Below the pieces are notes generated by a model, which did not search any database, was not told the DNA's origin, and saw only the letters and a list, made by a program, of their open reading frames with translations. From Candidatus Heimdallarchaeota archaeon (GTDB taxonomy: Archaea > Asgardarchaeota > Heimdallarchaeia > JABLTI01): a DNA stretch of 5,385 nucleotides. Shown here in pieces: positions 58-5,385 of this stretch. Within the stretch, counting starts at the first letter, position 1, and each line of letters begins with the position of its first letter. Location of the stretch: the NCBI GenBank assembly GCA_030614005.1, contig JAUWKS010000112.1:1-5385 (forward strand), in the 5' to 3' direction. Both the position numbers and the translations under genes were made by a program.

Positions 58-696
58 TTGGTAATTTTTGATGAATGTAAAAAAGCGATTGTTCGAGGAG
101 ACATCGAGAAAGCAGAAGAATTAGCCAATCAATCTTTAGCTGATAAACTAAATCTCAATACGGTTGTTGATGCTTTTTCTGATGCTATTCGCCATGTTGG
201 TAACTTGTTTGATGAAGGAGAATATTTCTTGCCTGAATTGATGCGCAGTGCAGAGGCTATGAAAGCAGCTATGGCTATTTTAACCCCTCATTTATCTTCT
301 AGTGAAGTTGAAACAAGATCTTTGGGGACGGTTGTAATTGGTACCATTGAAGGTGACATTCATGATATCGGCAAAACTTTGGTTGCCGCAATGCTTACTG
401 CCGAAGGTTTTGAAGTGCATGATTTGGGTGCCGATGTTCCTGTTACTACTTTTATTGAGAAGGCATTAGAAGTAAACGCTCAATTAATTTGCATTTCTGC
501 TCTACTAACTACTACAATGGTCGGTCAAAAGAAACTCATAAATCAATTAGTCAAGCAAAATATCCGCGACCGTTTTAAGGTCCTTCTTGGAGGCGCCCCA
601 GTATCGAAAAATTGGGTTGCTGAAATCGGTGCAGATGGCACCGCAGAGAATGCCATTAGTGCTGTTAAACTTGCTAAAGAATTAATGGAACATTAA
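58..696 (+). CDS. Stand-alone corrinoid (cobalamin-binding) protein of the MtmC/MtbC/MttC / MetH cap+Cob type
   Basis: Base-off/His-on motif DxHxxG (EGDIHDIGKTLV, codons 355-372), SxL (CISALLTTT) and GG (LLGGAP), preceded by a helical cap domain (…VGNLFDEGEYFLPELMRSAEAMK). The ORF track starts at TTG 31. TTG 58 is preferred because it has an SD-like AGGTGG at 43-48, 9 nt upstream, giving 212 aa. Ends at TAA 694-696. Confidence 0.95.
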   Translation: MVIFDECKKAIVRGDIEKAEELANQSLADKLNLNTVVDAFSDAIRHVGNLFDEGEYFLPELMRSAEAMKAAMAILTPHLSSSEVETRSLGTVVIGTIEGDIHDIGKTLVAAMLTAEGFEVHDLGADVPVTTFIEKALEVNAQLICISALLTTTMVGQKKLINQLVKQNIRDRFKVLLGGAPVSKNWVAEIGADGTAENAISAVKLAKELMEH

Positions 697-703
697 GGCG
701 GGA
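695..703 (+). promoter_or_regulatory. Shine-Dalgarno-like site for the homocysteine methyltransferase gene
   Basis: AAGGCGGGA overlaps the upstream stop and sits 5 nt before in-frame CTG 709. It is a conspicuously G-rich patch in AT-rich DNA. Confidence 0.45.
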
Positions 704-708
704 TCTCG

Positions 709-1596
709 CTGACAAATAAGAAATCAATACTTGATCTCATCAAGGAACAGGTTGTTTTATTAGATGGAGCAATGGGATCTGAGCTTATTGCTGCCGGGTT
801 GCCGACCAGAACTCCTTCTGAAAGCTGGAATGTTACCGCTCCTGAAAAAGTAAAACAAATTCATAAGAACTACTTTGATGCAGGATCCAATGCTGTTTTG
901 ACCAATACTTTTGGTGGAACTAGAATAAAGCTTGCTGCCCTTGAGTATGGGGATAAAGTAGAAGAGTATAACGCTAAAGCAGTGGGAATTGTTCGAAGTG
1001 TCTGTCCAGATGGTTGTTTTGTTGGAGGAGATATTGGTCCAACAGGCAAGTTTCTTCCACCTGTAGGAAAAGCCACTACTGATGATTTCTCAGAGAACTT
1101 TTTAGAGCAAGCAAAGATCTTAGCTGAAAATGGTGTTGATTTCTTTTTCATTGAAACAATGATGGATATCAAAGAAGCTGAGGCAGCTGTTCTTGCTGCG
1201 CGGAAAGTTGCAAATATACCTATCTTTGCTTCAATTACCTACCAAAAAACCAAACGTGGTTATTTCACTGTGATGGGCAATTCAATAGAGCAATGTGTTA
1301 CAATTCTAGAAAAAGCCGGTGCTGATGTTATTGGTGCAAATTGTACCATTGGTAGCGATGATATGATCGAATTAATCGTTCAACTACGGAATGCTACGAA
1401 ACTACCTATAAGTGCTAAACCAAATGCAGGTATGCCAGAGTTGAGGAATGGAGAAACTGTCTATCCAACTATACCAGAGGATTTTGCTCGAGACATTGTT
1501 CAAATAGTAAATGCCAAAGCAAATGTTGTTGGAGGATGCTGTGGAACCGACCCCCAATATATTAAACAAATTACTAAAGTTTTGAAGGGAATATAA
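709..1596 (+). CDS. Homocysteine S-methyltransferase family protein (stand-alone MetH N-terminal Hcy/Zn-binding domain)
   Basis: Family motifs VVLLDGAMGSEL, GSNAVLTNTFG, GDIGPTG, GVDFFFIETM, GANC (Zn ligand), KPNAGMP and GGCCGT (Zn ligands, 1531-1548). ATG 772 in the ORF track lies inside the conserved LDGAMG motif, so the true start must be upstream. The frame is open back to TAA 694-696, and the best candidate is CTG 709 behind AAGGCGGGA (695-703), giving MTNKKSILDLIKEQVVLLDGAMG…, 295 aa. Family call is strong; the start position is less certain. Confidence 0.92.
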   Translation: MTNKKSILDLIKEQVVLLDGAMGSELIAAGLPTRTPSESWNVTAPEKVKQIHKNYFDAGSNAVLTNTFGGTRIKLAALEYGDKVEEYNAKAVGIVRSVCPDGCFVGGDIGPTGKFLPPVGKATTDDFSENFLEQAKILAENGVDFFFIETMMDIKEAEAAVLAARKVANIPIFASITYQKTKRGYFTVMGNSIEQCVTILEKAGADVIGANCTIGSDDMIELIVQLRNATKLPISAKPNAGMPELRNGETVYPTIPEDFARDIVQIVNAKANVVGGCCGTDPQYIKQITKVLKGI

Positions 1597-1597
1597 T

Positions 1598-2257
1598 TTG
1601 AAGATTTTAGAGCATATTGGAATATCGCTGGATAATCAAGAGATACTTCAATTATTACGTAGCAAAAATTCATCTTCACAAAAAAGTAAAAAGTCTAAGG
1701 AACCTTCCCCTCAGCTGTTAGAAGACATTGAATCTTTGAAAAAAGAGGCTCTAGAATTAATTGAAACAAAAGCAATTTATGATATTTTCTTAAGTAAAGA
1801 TTTGCAACCAAGACATCTCTTTGACTTATCTGAAAAAACGATTTTTGCGGTTTGTACCGTATCAAAAGCACTAGAGGATAAAATCTCAGGAATGATGGAG
1901 AAAGGTGAACTAGCAAAAGGAGTAATTTTAGATGCTATTGCTTCCAATGCAGCAGAAGAAACCGCTTCACAATTAACAAAGATAATACTTGAGGAAAATA
2001 AAGAGATCCTCCAGGAAAAAATGCTTACTTCGAGATTTAGCCCGGGATACTGTAGATGGTTAGTAGAGGAAGGTCAGCAACTTATCTTCTCTTTATTACC
2101 AGTTGAAAAGATTAATGTGAAATTATCGCCGTCATTTATGATGATTCCAAGAAAATCAATTTCTTTTGGAATAAATATCGGCAAAGAAGTGGAAGAAGAT
2201 TTAGGGATAAAAGAGTGTGATACTTGCGATTTAATTGATTGTAATTATAGGAGATAA
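1598..2257 (+). CDS. Stand-alone B12-dependent methionine synthase activation-domain protein (short MetH reactivation-domain family)
   Basis: Motifs CTV, GELAKGVILDAIASNAAE, SRFSPGY, INVKLSPSFMMIPRKSISFGINIG and C-terminal CDTCDLIDCNYRR match short stand-alone activation-domain proteins. TTG start lies 1 nt after the upstream TAA, with purine-rich GAAGGGA at 1584-1590. Confidence 0.85.
   Translation: MKILEHIGISLDNQEILQLLRSKNSSSQKSKKSKEPSPQLLEDIESLKKEALELIETKAIYDIFLSKDLQPRHLFDLSEKTIFAVCTVSKALEDKISGMMEKGELAKGVILDAIASNAAEETASQLTKIILEENKEILQEKMLTSRFSPGYCRWLVEEGQQLIFSLLPVEKINVKLSPSFMMIPRKSISFGINIGKEVEEDLGIKECDTCDLIDCNYRR
2249..2254 (+). promoter_or_regulatory. Shine-Dalgarno-like site for the MttB-family gene
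   Basis: AGGAGA within the last codons of the activation-domain gene, followed by an A-rich spacer to ATG 2266. Confidence 0.45.
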
Positions 2258-2265
2258 AGAAAAAA

Positions 2266-3729
2266 ATGAAACCAGCTATACGTCCTACAATAAAAATACT
2301 AGAAAAAGAACTCAAAAAGAAAGTTGTTAACGAAGCAATGGAAATCCTTGCAGAAATAGGTTTCTTTGCTGAAAATAAAGAAGCAATAGCTCTTCTTCAG
2401 AAGAATGGTTTGGAAGTTGACTCCAAAAGCAAAAGAGCGAAAATACCTATCGATGTTACCAAGAAAGCTTTGAAAAGTGTGCCTTCTTCAATAACACTGT
2501 TTGATAGAGATGGAAATCAAGCGGCTATTTTGGAAGGAGATAATATCTGTTTTGACCCAGGTTCCGCAGCTTTACGAGTGCTAGATACAGAATCAAATGA
2601 AATACGAGAAGCTTATACCAAGGACTTTGTTGAATTTACCAAAGTGGTAGAACAATTGGAACACATCCATGCTCAAAGTACCGCCATAATTTGTTCTGAT
2701 GTTCCAGAAGAAGTATCGGATATGTATCGTCTTTTGATTTGTTTGTTATTTTCAAAGAAGCCTGTTATTACTGGCACTTTCAAAAAGGAATCATTTGCTA
2801 AAATGAAAGACATGCTCGTTACTATTAGAGGCAGCGAAAAGAAATTGAGAGAAAAGCCTTTGGCAATATTTGATGCATGCCCATCTCCCCCACTCAAGTG
2901 GAGTGATCTAACCTGTCAAAGTATTATTGATGCAGCAAAATATGGCATCCCGTCAGAATTCATCTCAATGCCTATGACTGGCGCTAATGCTCCCGTAACA
3001 ATATTGGGTGCAATAGTTCAGCACGCAGCTGAAACATTGGCTGGAGTCGTTATTACACAACTCGTTTCTCCAAGTGCTCCGGTAATTTGGGGTGGCTCCC
3101 CAGCAGTTTTTGATATGAGAAAAGGAACGACACCGATGGGTTCTATCGATACGATGATGCTTGACATAGGATATACAGAAATCGGCAAATATCTCAATAT
3201 CCCCACTCACGCTTATTTAGGCATGTCCGATGCAAAAATACTAGATATGCAGGCCGGTTTTGAAACTGGTATGGGTGCATTATTAGCTGGAATAAAAGGC
3301 GTGAACATGATTTCTGGTGCAGGGATGATAGATTTTGAGACCACACAAAGTATCCAGAAAGTTGTCATTGATAACGAAATTTGTGGGATGACTTACAAGT
3401 TTATTGAAGGGATAACTCAAAGAGATGAACCAATAGCTAAAGATCTATTGAATCTATTTGATGAGAAAACCACTCATCTGTTAGCACACGATCATACTCT
3501 GAAATGGTTCAGAAAAGAACAGTATATACCTAGCACTATTGTTGATCGAGGAACGAAAGAAGAATGGATAACAAATGGACGAAAGTCTATTGGAGATCGA
3601 GCTAAAGAGAGAGCTGAGAAACTAATCAAAAAATATCCAGGATTATCATTGGAAAATGATGTAATCAAAGAATTAGCTTCAAACTTCAAATTTGCTGATT
3701 TTGATATCAAGAAGATTACTGATATCTAA
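2266..3729 (+). CDS. mttB: MttB-superfamily (trimethylamine methyltransferase family) corrinoid methyltransferase, pyrrolysine-free
   Basis: 487 aa with family hallmarks: N-terminal EAMEILAEIGF…A..LL, PSSITLFDRDG, SPPLKWS, MPMTGANAPVTILGAIVQHAAETLAGVVITQLVSPSAPVIWG, FDMRKG…MGSID, SDAK…DMQAGFE, GAGMID…SIQKVVIDNEI, HTLKWFRKE, DR…EEW. No in-frame TAG. The symbol denotes the family only; the substrate is unknown. Confidence 0.93.
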   Translation: MKPAIRPTIKILEKELKKKVVNEAMEILAEIGFFAENKEAIALLQKNGLEVDSKSKRAKIPIDVTKKALKSVPSSITLFDRDGNQAAILEGDNICFDPGSAALRVLDTESNEIREAYTKDFVEFTKVVEQLEHIHAQSTAIICSDVPEEVSDMYRLLICLLFSKKPVITGTFKKESFAKMKDMLVTIRGSEKKLREKPLAIFDACPSPPLKWSDLTCQSIIDAAKYGIPSEFISMPMTGANAPVTILGAIVQHAAETLAGVVITQLVSPSAPVIWGGSPAVFDMRKGTTPMGSIDTMMLDIGYTEIGKYLNIPTHAYLGMSDAKILDMQAGFETGMGALLAGIKGVNMISGAGMIDFETTQSIQKVVIDNEICGMTYKFIEGITQRDEPIAKDLLNLFDEKTTHLLAHDHTLKWFRKEQYIPSTIVDRGTKEEWITNGRKSIGDRAKERAEKLIKKYPGLSLENDVIKELASNFKFADFDIKKITDI

Positions 3730-3751
3730 TCTCTAATTTGAGAGATTTTTT
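3728..3751 (+). terminator. Putative terminator of the methyltransferase cluster
   Basis: Inverted repeat AATCTCT (3728-3734) / AGAGATT (3741-3747) with a 6-nt loop, running into TTTTTT (3746-3751), directly at the mttB-family stop codon. Confidence 0.55.
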
Positions 3752-3764
3752 ACCTTTTCTGATG

Positions 3765-3813: not shown

Positions 3814-5043
3814 ATGAGCGATTCTAATTCAAGTAAAACAGATATTATAGTAGTAGGTAGTGGCCCGGCAGGGTCAACGACTGCAAGATTTTTAGCTCAA
3901 GAAGGATTTCGTGTGAAAATTCTTGAAGCAAAAAGTTCCGTTGGGATTCCCGTTCGATGCGGTGAAGCAGTTGCTCGAGATACCTTTGAGGATATATTGA
4001 AGATACCTATGCCAGAAAATGCTGTTAGAGCTGTTATTGGGGGGTTCAGAGTTTTCAGTCCTAATATGAAAAGCATTGATTATAGACTTCCGACAGGTGA
4101 AGGTTGGGTTGTTGATCGAAGAGTTTTTGATAAAGAGATGCTCATTGCCGCTATTCGCGAAGGAGCTGAAATTGAGCTCAATACAAAAGTAATACACACA
4201 GAGATTGATAAAGAAAAGGGTGTCACTCTAAAAGCTGAACAGAAAGGAAAAGAAGTTACTTATACAGCACCAGTTGTTATTGGCGCGGATGGGATTTATA
4301 GTACAGTTGCTCGAGATGTTGGACTTGCTAAACCAATTGAACCTATCGATTTAGATACTTCTGTAGGTTATGAAATGGTTGGTGTAGATTTTCCAGAACC
4401 GGATATGTTTGATCTTTACGTTGGGTCAGACCTAGTTCCAAGGGGATATATTTGGGTATTTCCTAAAGGAGAGCATTGTGCTAATGTTGGACTTGGCATA
4501 GGCGTTGGTTTTGCAAAGAAACCTGTTAAAGAATACCTTGACGATTTCATTTTCAATCATCCTGAAGGGAAAAAACGCTTCAAAAATGCTAAAATCATCG
4601 AAGAACGAATAGGAGCAATCCCCGTTGGAGGAGTATTAGAAAAATTCGCTACTGATAGAGTACTTTTGGTTGGTGATGCTGCTAGACAGGTTAATCCACT
4701 TACTGGAGGAGGAATTGCTTATGGTATGGAAGCGGGGAAGATGATAAGTAATACCTTAGTTGAAGCATTCAAGAAAGAGAATTTTAGTGAGAGCTTTTTG
4801 AGAAAGAAGTATGAAGGCTATTGGCAGAAGGATTATGGTGCATCATTTGGTATGGGGTTAAAGGCGCGTAAAATATTAGATAAAATTACCAATGAACAAA
4901 TGAACAACATTGTTGAAGCCTTAGATGGAGAAGATTTGTTAAAAGCAGTAACAGGTCGCTGGAAACAAATCAAAATTGGTACGAAACTAATGAAAAAGGA
5001 TCCTTCCTTGGTTAAGCTTATTACAGATTCTTTATTCAAATAG
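3814..5043 (+). CDS. Geranylgeranyl reductase family flavoprotein, archaeal digeranylgeranylglycerophospholipid reductase-like
   Basis: Rossmann GxGxxG (VVGSGPAG), PVRCGEAV, VDRRVFDK, VIGADG, the signature PxxYxWxFP (PRGYIWVFP), ANVGLG and LVGDAARQVNPLTGGGI. ATG 3814 has GAGGA at 3800-3804. 409 aa. Confidence 0.92.
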   Translation: MSDSNSSKTDIIVVGSGPAGSTTARFLAQEGFRVKILEAKSSVGIPVRCGEAVARDTFEDILKIPMPENAVRAVIGGFRVFSPNMKSIDYRLPTGEGWVVDRRVFDKEMLIAAIREGAEIELNTKVIHTEIDKEKGVTLKAEQKGKEVTYTAPVVIGADGIYSTVARDVGLAKPIEPIDLDTSVGYEMVGVDFPEPDMFDLYVGSDLVPRGYIWVFPKGEHCANVGLGIGVGFAKKPVKEYLDDFIFNHPEGKKRFKNAKIIEERIGAIPVGGVLEKFATDRVLLVGDAARQVNPLTGGGIAYGMEAGKMISNTLVEAFKKENFSESFLRKKYEGYWQKDYGASFGMGLKARKILDKITNEQMNNIVEALDGEDLLKAVTGRWKQIKIGTKLMKKDPSLVKLITDSLFK

Positions 5044-5130: not shown

Positions 5131-5385
5131 CTACAAAAACTGTTTTAATTCCTCATCAAAATCCTTATCTTTTTTTCTTGTGGTTCGCGATCGTTCTTTG
5201 AATTTCTTGAATTCTTTCGCAGAAGATGTATGTGCTTCTTTTGCATTCTTCATCTTATGATTGACGATTTTTCTCACCATGGATGCTCTTTGGGGGTTCA
5301 AACGATAGAACCTTCCAGAATCATTATCGTACATTTCAAAGAGTTCTGTATCTGCATCTTGCAATGCTTTTAGAATTATACAAAT
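5131..5385 (-). CDS. 3' end of an unidentified protein, truncated by the window edge; possibly winged-helix-like with a basic tail
   Basis: The minus-strand frame is open from 5385 to TAG at 5133-5131: ICIILKALQDADTELFEMYDNDSGRFYRLNPQRASMVRKIVNHKMKNAKEAHTSSAKEFKKFKERSRTTRKKDKDFDEELKQFL. There is no stop upstream of the TTG 5364 used in the ORF track, so the gene probably begins outside the window. The product call is tentative. Confidence 0.7.
   Translation of the reverse strand: MCIILKALQDADTELFEMYDNDSGRFYRLNPQRASMVRKIVNHKMKNAKEAHTSSAKEFKKFKERSRTTRKKDKDFDEELKQFL

Follow-up and report, generated by a model that had tools for sequence, protein, structure and literature searches.

The window analysed here is a stretch of 5385 bases that makes up one entire contig of a 3.62-Mb metagenome-assembled genome (MAG; 126 contigs, 90% complete) of a Heimdallarchaeota archaeon, and five genes on its plus strand fill it: four that we call g1 to g4, for a corrinoid protein, a homocysteine methyltransferase, an activation domain and an MttB homologue, followed by a gene of the geranylgeranyl reductase family. 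A first-pass annotation had described g1 to g4 as co-oriented genes with gaps of 12, 1 and 8 nt, had taken their host for a probable archaeon, and had proposed that they form a split methionine synthase in which an MttB homologue without pyrrolysine replaces the folate module and draws on a methylated amine. We found the open reading frames where that annotation had put them, with the gaps as it gave them if g2 starts at CTG 709, and near-identical proteins and loci confirmed that the window belongs to a Heimdallarchaeota (Heimdallarchaeaceae) MAG. DNA runs that contain the window sequence are labelled as cold-seep and marine-sediment metagenomes, and no RNA run is listed among those containing it. 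On the evidence below we consider it fairly likely that the four genes are one operon for a split, cobalamin-dependent and pterin-independent methionine synthase.

Four genes and a proposed division of labour

The first gene, g1 (58..696), encodes a corrinoid (cobalamin-binding) carrier of the MttC/MtgC type, with a B12-binding_2 cap and a B12-binding Rossmann domain (PF02607 and PF02310). It passes TIGR02370 (220.9 bits, cut-off 215.3), and its closest solved chain is that of MttC (7xcn_M, 184.6 bits; the MetH cobalamin domain scores 103 bits). The positions D109-x-H111-x-x-G114, S156-x-L158 and G187-G188 show no variation among 24 homologues, and by these profiles and motifs we assign g1 to the cognate corrinoid proteins of methyltransferases (MttC/MtbC/MtgC type). 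Its start is likely TTG 58, which has an AAGGTGG motif ~10 nt on its 5' side, with TTG 31 as an alternative; the g1 genes of relatives are called at 211-212 aa.

On the presumed acceptor side, g2 (709..1596; PF02574, 236.7 bits) encodes a homocysteine-binding Zn methyltransferase of the MetH type. Among solved structures it scores best with the Thermotoga maritima MetH homocysteine module (204.8 bits), with BHMT at 61 bits and homocysteine methyltransferases (HMT) of the S-adenosylmethionine (AdoMet) or S-methylmethionine (SMM) type at 47; since g2 is so much nearer to the MetH module than to BHMT or HMT, methylcobalamin fits as its methyl donor. Three predicted zinc cysteines (C212, C277 and C278) and D19-G20 are constant among 24 homologues, and the DGAMG and E149-T150 positions are invariant, so that by profile and Cys3 site g2 can be assigned as a MetH homocysteine-binding module. 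On the minus strand at C123:46205-47128, beside hydantoinase/oxoprolinase-like genes, the genome of the window encodes a further homocysteine S-methyltransferase, a paralogue that is not linked to g2 and is 41% identical to it; this protein may recycle AdoMet or SMM. All genomes of the genus contain a weaker-scoring, unlinked second match, which is probably this paralogue. We also saw that the TAA stop of g1 (window region 694-711) is in frame with g2 and 12 nt before it, such that one read-through would fuse both proteins, and we rejected such a fusion, as the spacers of relatives have 9, 14 and other lengths and frames, with separate starts, and the frame match looks like coincidence.

The third gene, g3 (1598..2257), encodes a compact stand-alone MetH activation (AdoMet-binding) domain. 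Its match to PF02965 (Met_synt_B12) is weak and partial (32.2 bits, cut-off 25, residues 133-194), and the AdoMet motif RxxxGY, here R146-F-S148-P149-G150-Y151, is invariant or nearly so in a 24-sequence alignment. An AlphaFold (AF2) model of g3 (pLDDT 88.9) has as its top fold match 1j6r, the T. maritima protein TM0269 (E 3e-10, TM 0.67/0.74), followed by 18 further MetH activation-domain chains or entries at E <= 0.001, with the reactivation domains from Thermus, E. coli and human next in line after TM0269. Profile, motif and modelled fold together identify g3 as a predicted MetH activation domain. At its C-terminus g3 has a C207-x2-C210-x4(5)-C215 motif (window 2216-2242), which is kept in Asgard and some bacterial homologues and missing from others, and Asgard g3 proteins have a fourth cysteine after RxxxGY (C152, window 2051-2053); this motif, in a part of the model that has low confidence, may bind a metal or an Fe-S cluster through which electrons enter.

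The fourth gene, g4 (2266..3729), encodes a methyltransferase of the MttB superfamily that would serve the donor side. It matches PF06253 (MTTB) at 281.3 bits (cut-off 25) over residues 7-471 of 487, which places it in the superfamily, and it scores 378 bits against the pyrrolysine MttB equivalog TIGR02369, below the cut-off of 525. The frame is open and has no internal TAG, and we therefore take g4 to be free of pyrrolysine.

We infer the direction of methyl flow, the joint working of the proteins and the whole chemistry, which would run as follows. A methyl group would be taken by g4 from some small methylated compound and passed to the Co(I) corrinoid on g1; g2 would then move it from methyl-Co(III)-g1 to homocysteine, giving methionine; and occasional Co(II)-g1 would be restored by g3 through reductive methylation with AdoMet, a step that would need an electron donor. 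Complex prediction weakly supports the pairing of g2 with g1, which scored 0.59 (best of three controls, 0.00), scores of 0.60 or less being those of 7 of the 80 solved complexes and of both mismatches that passed; the mark was reached by 58 of these 80 complexes and by 2 of 110 mismatched pairs. Contacts were shared between the runs to at least 75%, the partner had a pLDDT of at least 79, and the pass may reflect the likeness of the pair to existing full-length MetH structures. Because of the nearest relatives of its parts, the cassette would be a chimera, with g4 and g1 from the world of methylamine methyltransferases and g2 and g3 from a Thermotoga-like split MetH.

Distribution of the cassette and of other methionine synthases

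Our class-wide counts cover 82 genomes of Heimdallarchaeia, including the families f1 (n=11), f2 (n=30) and the Hod-like f3 (n=22). Within the genus, the order corrinoid gene, homocysteine gene, activation gene, mttB and geranylgeranyl reductase gene is kept in G001, G003 and G005-G010, and independent gene calls with Pfam labels on contigs of 228 kb and 2.26 Mb confirmed it. Relative to the orthologues in G010, dN/dS is 0.066 for g1, 0.103 for g2, 0.141 for g3 and 0.040 for g4, indicating purifying selection on all four. Across the class, an MttB homologue was found in 57 of the 82 genomes and a homocysteine methyltransferase in 60, and according to coordinate tables a homocysteine methyltransferase of ~300 aa shares a contig with MttB in ~45, mostly at a distance of 5 kb or less (one at ~8 kb). 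About 50 of the 82 genomes have the cassette, and its genes come in three orders: the one in the window; one in f3 with mttB ahead of the activation gene; and one in a second family, in which 1-4 kb separate the activation gene from mttB. Two over-long open reading frames (L100 and L109) were considered as Rosetta-stone gene fusions and rejected, since they consist of the expected domain and unassigned extensions only.

A scan of 185,579 species genomes identified at least 599 relatives of g4, and we read the neighbourhoods of the best 80 of these, to which the counts of loci that follow are confined. Thirty-five are Asgard (Heimdall, Thor, Loki/Promethearchaeota, Odin and Hod), 30 of them with adjacent corrinoid and homocysteine genes, and 45 are bacterial (Aminicenantes, 'Eubacteriales', Anaerolineales, Zixibacteria, KSB1, Acidobacteriota and Spirochaetes). 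Twelve of the bacterial loci have a homocysteine gene, 16 more have corrinoid and activation genes, seven have a corrinoid gene alone and nine are partnerless; counted another way, a homocysteine and/or activation gene stands beside MttB in 29 of the 45, and 27 of these 29 have a corrinoid gene too. As a control, further MttB paralogues of Hod (24-25% identical to g4) were found without corrinoid, homocysteine or activation neighbours. Conservation of the neighbourhood had been put forward by the first-pass annotation as a check on its reading, and the four-gene arrangement proved to be widespread in the class, in other Asgard archaea and in many bacterial phyla.

In a maximum-likelihood tree of g4 relatives rooted with paralogues, the cassette-type MttBs form one clade (support 100/97), within which all Asgard genes and the solitary Spirochaete genes fall together (starred clade, 99/98) and the other bacterial groups lie outside. 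The solitary Spirochaete genes (L044 and L056-L059), 60-64% identical to g4, are its nearest bacterial relatives and stand beside Heimdallarchaeia in the tree (100/98), which suggests a transfer between domains with loss of the partner genes; being solitary, these homologues are silent on partners.

No pterin-binding gene lies within the window, and as the window is a whole contig, upstream DNA could be read only in relatives, where the operons examined had no pterin-binding or MtbA/MtaA gene upstream of the cassette; what the first-pass annotation had said about such genes was thus borne out in the window and in the operons of relatives. Having no Pterin_bind domain, the cluster is not a canonical MetH (TIGR02082). 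In the genome to which the window belongs, which is 90% complete, the only two Pterin_bind matches are a DHPS (TIGR01496, 211.6 bits) and an archaeal DHPS-like protein (TIGR00284, 269 bits). We did not find MetE/Meth_synt_2, MTHFR, MtrH or a RamA-type activator (RACo_C_ter) in that genome, nor a true Mer (best match 55.6 bits, cut-off 348.7), and a distant UroD/MtaA-like protein elsewhere in it scores 93.7 bits against a cut-off of 244. MetE-like genes are present in 0/11 genomes of f1, 0/30 of f2 and 11/22 of f3, and MTHFR above cut-off in none of the 41 genomes of f1 and f2. A pterin domain of the methyl-tetrahydrofolate:corrinoid type (NF005719 type, E <= 1e-15) was detected in only 4 of the 82 genomes, which are those with long MetH-like open reading frames (480-878 aa). 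Each single absence is weak because the genomes are MAGs; the pattern over 41 genomes is consistent, and by these profile searches the cassette is the only recognizable methionine synthase in f1 and f2.

Other arrangements were seen elsewhere in the class. A short MetE-like gene (~390-440 aa) beside a weak MTHFR-like gene is a recurring pair in other families (G019:C87:108297-110239; G022:C8:107147-108986; G081:C314, G071:C82, G015:C19 and G077:C2) and may be a different methionine synthase system. The genera g5, g6 (with the closed genomes G016 and G026) and g10 show neither the MttB cassette nor a homocysteine methyltransferase, and most of their genomes also show no MetE, a MetE-like match being present in 2 of the 4 g5 genomes. 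Methionine auxotrophy is possible for those Heimdallarchaeial genomes in which all three are missing.

The methyl donor and competing explanations

To ask which donor g4 might use, we mapped its active site by pairwise HMMER alignments (which are not structure-based) to 7xcl (MttB) and 2qne (MtgB), with the site residues of MttB taken from PMC9842639 and the glycine-betaine ligands of MtgB from PMC13080624. The pyrrolysine of MttB, Pyl334, corresponds to M320 of g4 and the catalytic Tyr364 to S350; the cis peptide Gly110-Thr111 corresponds to D97-P98, and the active-site Met249 is kept as M235. None of the four betaine ligands of MtgB is kept, Y97 being replaced by S100, R312 by H315, H348 by S350 and F356 by E358, and g4 is thus not a glycine betaine:corrinoid methyltransferase of the MtgB type. 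R312 binds the acidic group of the substrate, and the enzymes for carnitine, proline betaine, butyrobetaine and phosphocholine have retained it (PMC13080624). In a 17-sequence alignment of Heimdall, Hod, Spirochaete and other members, S100, H315, S350 and E358 of g4 are invariant. As Pyl334, Tyr364 and the betaine ligands, R312 included, are gone, the donor is unlikely to be trimethylamine (by way of pyrrolysine), glycine betaine or another carboxylate betaine; it may be a cation that has no acidic group, or something other than an amine. No BCCT transporters were found in the 82 genomes, which weakens betaine, choline and carnitine as donors without excluding them, as ABC importers were not searched. 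Of the first-pass claim that an MttB without pyrrolysine uses a methylated amine, the enzyme was confirmed; the amine was not established, given the missing Pyl/Tyr364 and betaine ligands and the lack of BCCT transporters.

Several points weigh against a synthase fed by g4. As judged from the alignments, g4 has the substrate-binding solution of neither MttB nor MtgB, and the absences listed above rest on MAGs that are 64-99% complete. The pterin module MtgD of Ruegeria is required for methionine synthesis on succinate (PMC12478193), and a corrinoid/homocysteine pair is therefore not necessarily fed by an MttB. Nor is the cassette always the sole synthase, as half of the Hod-family genomes also carry a MetE-like gene. 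CobS was not found in the window's own genome, which suggests that cobamide is imported. Finally, the canonical TTG start of g2 is lost here, so that translating it takes either a non-canonical start codon or coupling.

The same split synthase could work with a donor other than an amine, such as a sulfur or oxygen compound that carries a methyl group, or a methyl-pterin from an unrecognized reductase, with g4 as an analogue of the folate module. This would account for the loss of Pyl/Tyr364 and the betaine ligands and for an invariant S100/H315/S350/E358 pocket of g4's own, and MttB, MtaB and the folate module of MetH have in common that they are corrinoid-methylating TIM barrels (PMC9842639). 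A dependable donor would also be the safest for a sole methionine synthase. Against this, no MTHFR or Mer that could supply methyl-pterin was found in f1 and f2. To our knowledge, no member of PF06253 uses a non-nitrogen donor, and we consider this alternative unlikely.

Distinctly unlikely, in our judgement, is catabolic non-methanogenic methylotrophy, in which g4 and g1 would harvest methyl groups of quaternary amines via tetrahydrofolate (THF) or tetrahydromethanopterin (H4MPT) and methionine would be a side branch. This is how MttB-like genes, as pyrrolysine-free MttB together with MtbC-like genes, are read in the Asgard literature, with methylotrophy feeding THF or H4MPT (PMC11291895); moreover, the characterized enzymes of the MttB family are all catabolic, and the corrinoid protein of Ruegeria serves both roles. 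However, the genome yielded no methylcorrinoid:pterin methyltransferase (MtgA, MtgD, AcsE or MetH type) in addition to having no MtrH, MTHFR or true Mer, and such a methyltransferase was not found in 78 of the 82 genomes. The homocysteine module is the sole methyltransferase on the acceptor side that is conserved in the cluster. Catabolic or transporter genes were not found near the cassette in relatives, where the neighbours are housekeeping genes, and the count of zero BCCT transporters in 82 genomes also speaks against a catabolic role.

We further considered that the cassette is decaying in the species of the window, the loss of the TTG having silenced or crippled g2 in a cell that lives on imported methionine. 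The TTG with which g2 starts in its two nearest relatives (G010 and G001) is TCG at window 706-708, and contigs of 4 public runs from 3 studies have no other letter at that place; in addition, several Heimdallarchaeial genera, two closed genomes included, have no recognizable methionine synthase. The first canonical start of g2 is ATG 772. Since its use would cut off the conserved DGAMG motif, initiation may instead take place at CTG 709, at ATC 703 or by translational coupling to g1; a GGCGGG motif precedes CTG 709 and ATC 703, and with 12 nt between g1 and g2 the two could be translated in a coupled manner. The intact frame, the catalytic residues and motifs, all of which are kept, and the dN/dS of 0.10 against G010 argue that the gene is alive, and we regard decay as quite improbable.

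Very improbable is another acceptor or another direction: flow from methionine or a methyl-thioether to the corrinoid would be uphill, demethylation of methionine onto Co(I) being thermodynamically unfavourable, and a g2 that methylates a different thiol is hard to reconcile with its score of 204.8 bits to the T. maritima homocysteine module, its invariant DGAMG and E149-T150 and its company of a MetH-specific activation domain. What can be said for a different thiol is that Zn-thiolate methyltransferases of the g2 fold act on several thiols and that mixed cobamide systems methylate non-native thiols (PMC13618148).

Returning to the split methionine synthase fed by g4, a bolder extension of it can be offered tentatively, as possible and still rather doubtful. 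In at least two families the cassette would be the sole methionine synthase of cells that have no de novo synthesis of methyl groups, and all methyl groups of methionine and AdoMet would be harvested, via imported B12, from an environmental methylated compound recognized by the S100/H315/S350/E358 pocket. Because the cassette-type MttBs of Loki, Thor, Odin, Hod and Heimdall form one clade, 'methyl-group heterotrophy' of this kind could go far back in the Asgard archaea.

If the synthase is what we propose, methionine and, through it, AdoMet are made without folate in archaea closely related to eukaryotes. Imported cobamide and a methylated compound of the sediment would be required, growth would be tied to the methylated osmolytes or amines locally available, and Asgard MttB genes would have to be read as assimilation and not as methylotrophic energy metabolism. 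The MttB clade with its own invariant pocket is a defined target for enzymology.

Related systems and neighbouring genes

The proposal that MttB replaces the folate module of a split MetH is favoured by the modules, their linkage and the missing pterin module; the amine donor was not established, and the idea was already in print. Williams et al. 2022 (PMC9324843) described exactly this cluster, with the hypothesis, in Ca. Electryoneota and 'diverse bacteria'; genes of all four types are clustered there, the MttB homologue is without pyrrolysine and nearer to MttB than to MtgB, and corrinoid-dependent methionine synthesis from an unnamed methyl donor was hypothesized. The window holds together all the elements of their gene-cluster definition (a pyrrolysine-free MttB homologue, a homocysteine S-methyltransferase, a corrinoid protein and an activation protein), and the nearest bacterial relatives of g4 in Aminicenantes, Eubacteriales, Zixibacteria and Anaerolineales carry such clusters. 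Their cassette was described in bacteria, and Electryoneota also have a normal MetH, whereas here the host is an Asgard archaeon from a family in which no MetH, MetE or MTHFR was found. In another context, it has been proposed in print that MttB of Spirochaetota and Zixibacteria feeds HgcA in mercury methylation (PMC12484752).

A cousin of the cassette that contains a pterin module has genetic support from 2025. Mausz et al. 2025 (PMC12478193) showed that in Ruegeria MtgC and MtgD are both required, for methionine synthesis as well as for the demethylation of glycine betaine; MttB-family proteins (MtgB) are up on glycine betaine, reactivation is by RamA and DUF1638, and the role of the homocysteine module MtgE was assigned from earlier work on Phaeobacter. 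In the MtgBCDE system (Ruegeria pomeroyi, Phaeobacter inhibens and Sinorhizobium meliloti), as in the cassette, one corrinoid protein stands between an MttB-family demethylase and a stand-alone homocysteine module. However, MtgBCDE needs the pterin module MtgD, is reactivated by RamA with DUF1638, uses glycine betaine and occurs in aerobic Proteobacteria with its genes mostly scattered, whereas for the cassette no pterin module or RamA was found in the host, reactivation is predicted to be of the MetH type with AdoMet, and the betaine ligands are absent. With counterparts of MtgB, MtgC and MtgE and with neither an MtgD type nor RACo_C_ter in its own genome, the cassette falls outside MtgBCDE.

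Other known systems share single parts with the cassette. The MetH of T. maritima, which has no activation domain and is accompanied by the stand-alone TM0269, provides the nearest homocysteine module to g2 and the nearest fold to g3, and the cobalamin motifs and RxxxGY of MetH are conserved in the cassette. Unlike MetH, the cassette has no pterin module, its parts are separate proteins, and its corrinoid carrier is of the MttC lineage. With MttB/MttC and MtgB/MtgC of methanogens and acetogens it shares a TIM-barrel donor enzyme (g4 in PF06253) and a cognate corrinoid protein (g1 in TIGR02370); g4 differs in having Met at the pyrrolysine position, Ser at Tyr364 and S/H/S/E at the betaine positions, and the known pairs work with the acceptor enzymes MtbA/MtaA (for coenzyme M) or MtgA (for THF) and with the activator RamA. 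Price et al. 2021 (PMC7857596) described the folate-independent core methionine synthases MesA, MesB and MesC, which take the methyl group from a corrinoid protein; these are MetE-like (PF01717) and predicted to draw on MtrA or CoFeSP, whereas the acceptor enzyme here is MetH-like (PF02574), with a corrinoid that would be loaded by an MttB homologue.

The concept, in print since 2022, is therefore not new, and our finding extends known work and opens no new ground. We found no description of the cassette in Asgard archaea in the searchable literature. What is new is its course through Asgard archaea as one MttB clade, with two families in which no other synthase or methyl-pterin supply was found, together with the putative pocket, invariant and the clade's own, and the predicted TM0269 fold of g3.

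Around the cassette, the closest relatives have upstream of g1 a gene for a ~250-aa HEAT-repeat protein, with unrelated genes further out, and downstream genes for SepF, DNA primase and an XPD-like helicase as well as the lipid reductase. In the Hod-like family the upstream gene encodes a small protein with no family match, and in G034 an HxlR regulator. In one genus, that of G034, MttB is on another contig, and a gene for a 507-aa protein (L036:3261-4781) beside the activation gene converges on it from the opposite strand; the N-terminus of this protein is a B12-binding domain, and another part weakly resembles glutamate mutase E. At the end of the window an 84-aa open frame on the minus strand (5131-5385), with no Pfam or NCBIfam match, runs off the contig.

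Directly 3' of the g4 stop, at 3730..3756 on the plus strand, we read from the sequence a short hairpin, TCTCTAA...GAGAGA, with a T7 run, which may mark the end of the transcription unit. A sigma-70/terminator pattern scan of the window, which is unsuited to archaea, gave hits at chance level and left the hairpin unflagged (too few G-C pairs). The geranylgeranyl reductase family gene (3814-5043, plus strand; TIGR02032, 245 bits) is archaeal lipid reductase-like and follows the cassette in every genus genome examined, and not in other families. It is probably a separate unit, because an A/T-rich 84-nt spacer and the hairpin with its T run part it from g4.

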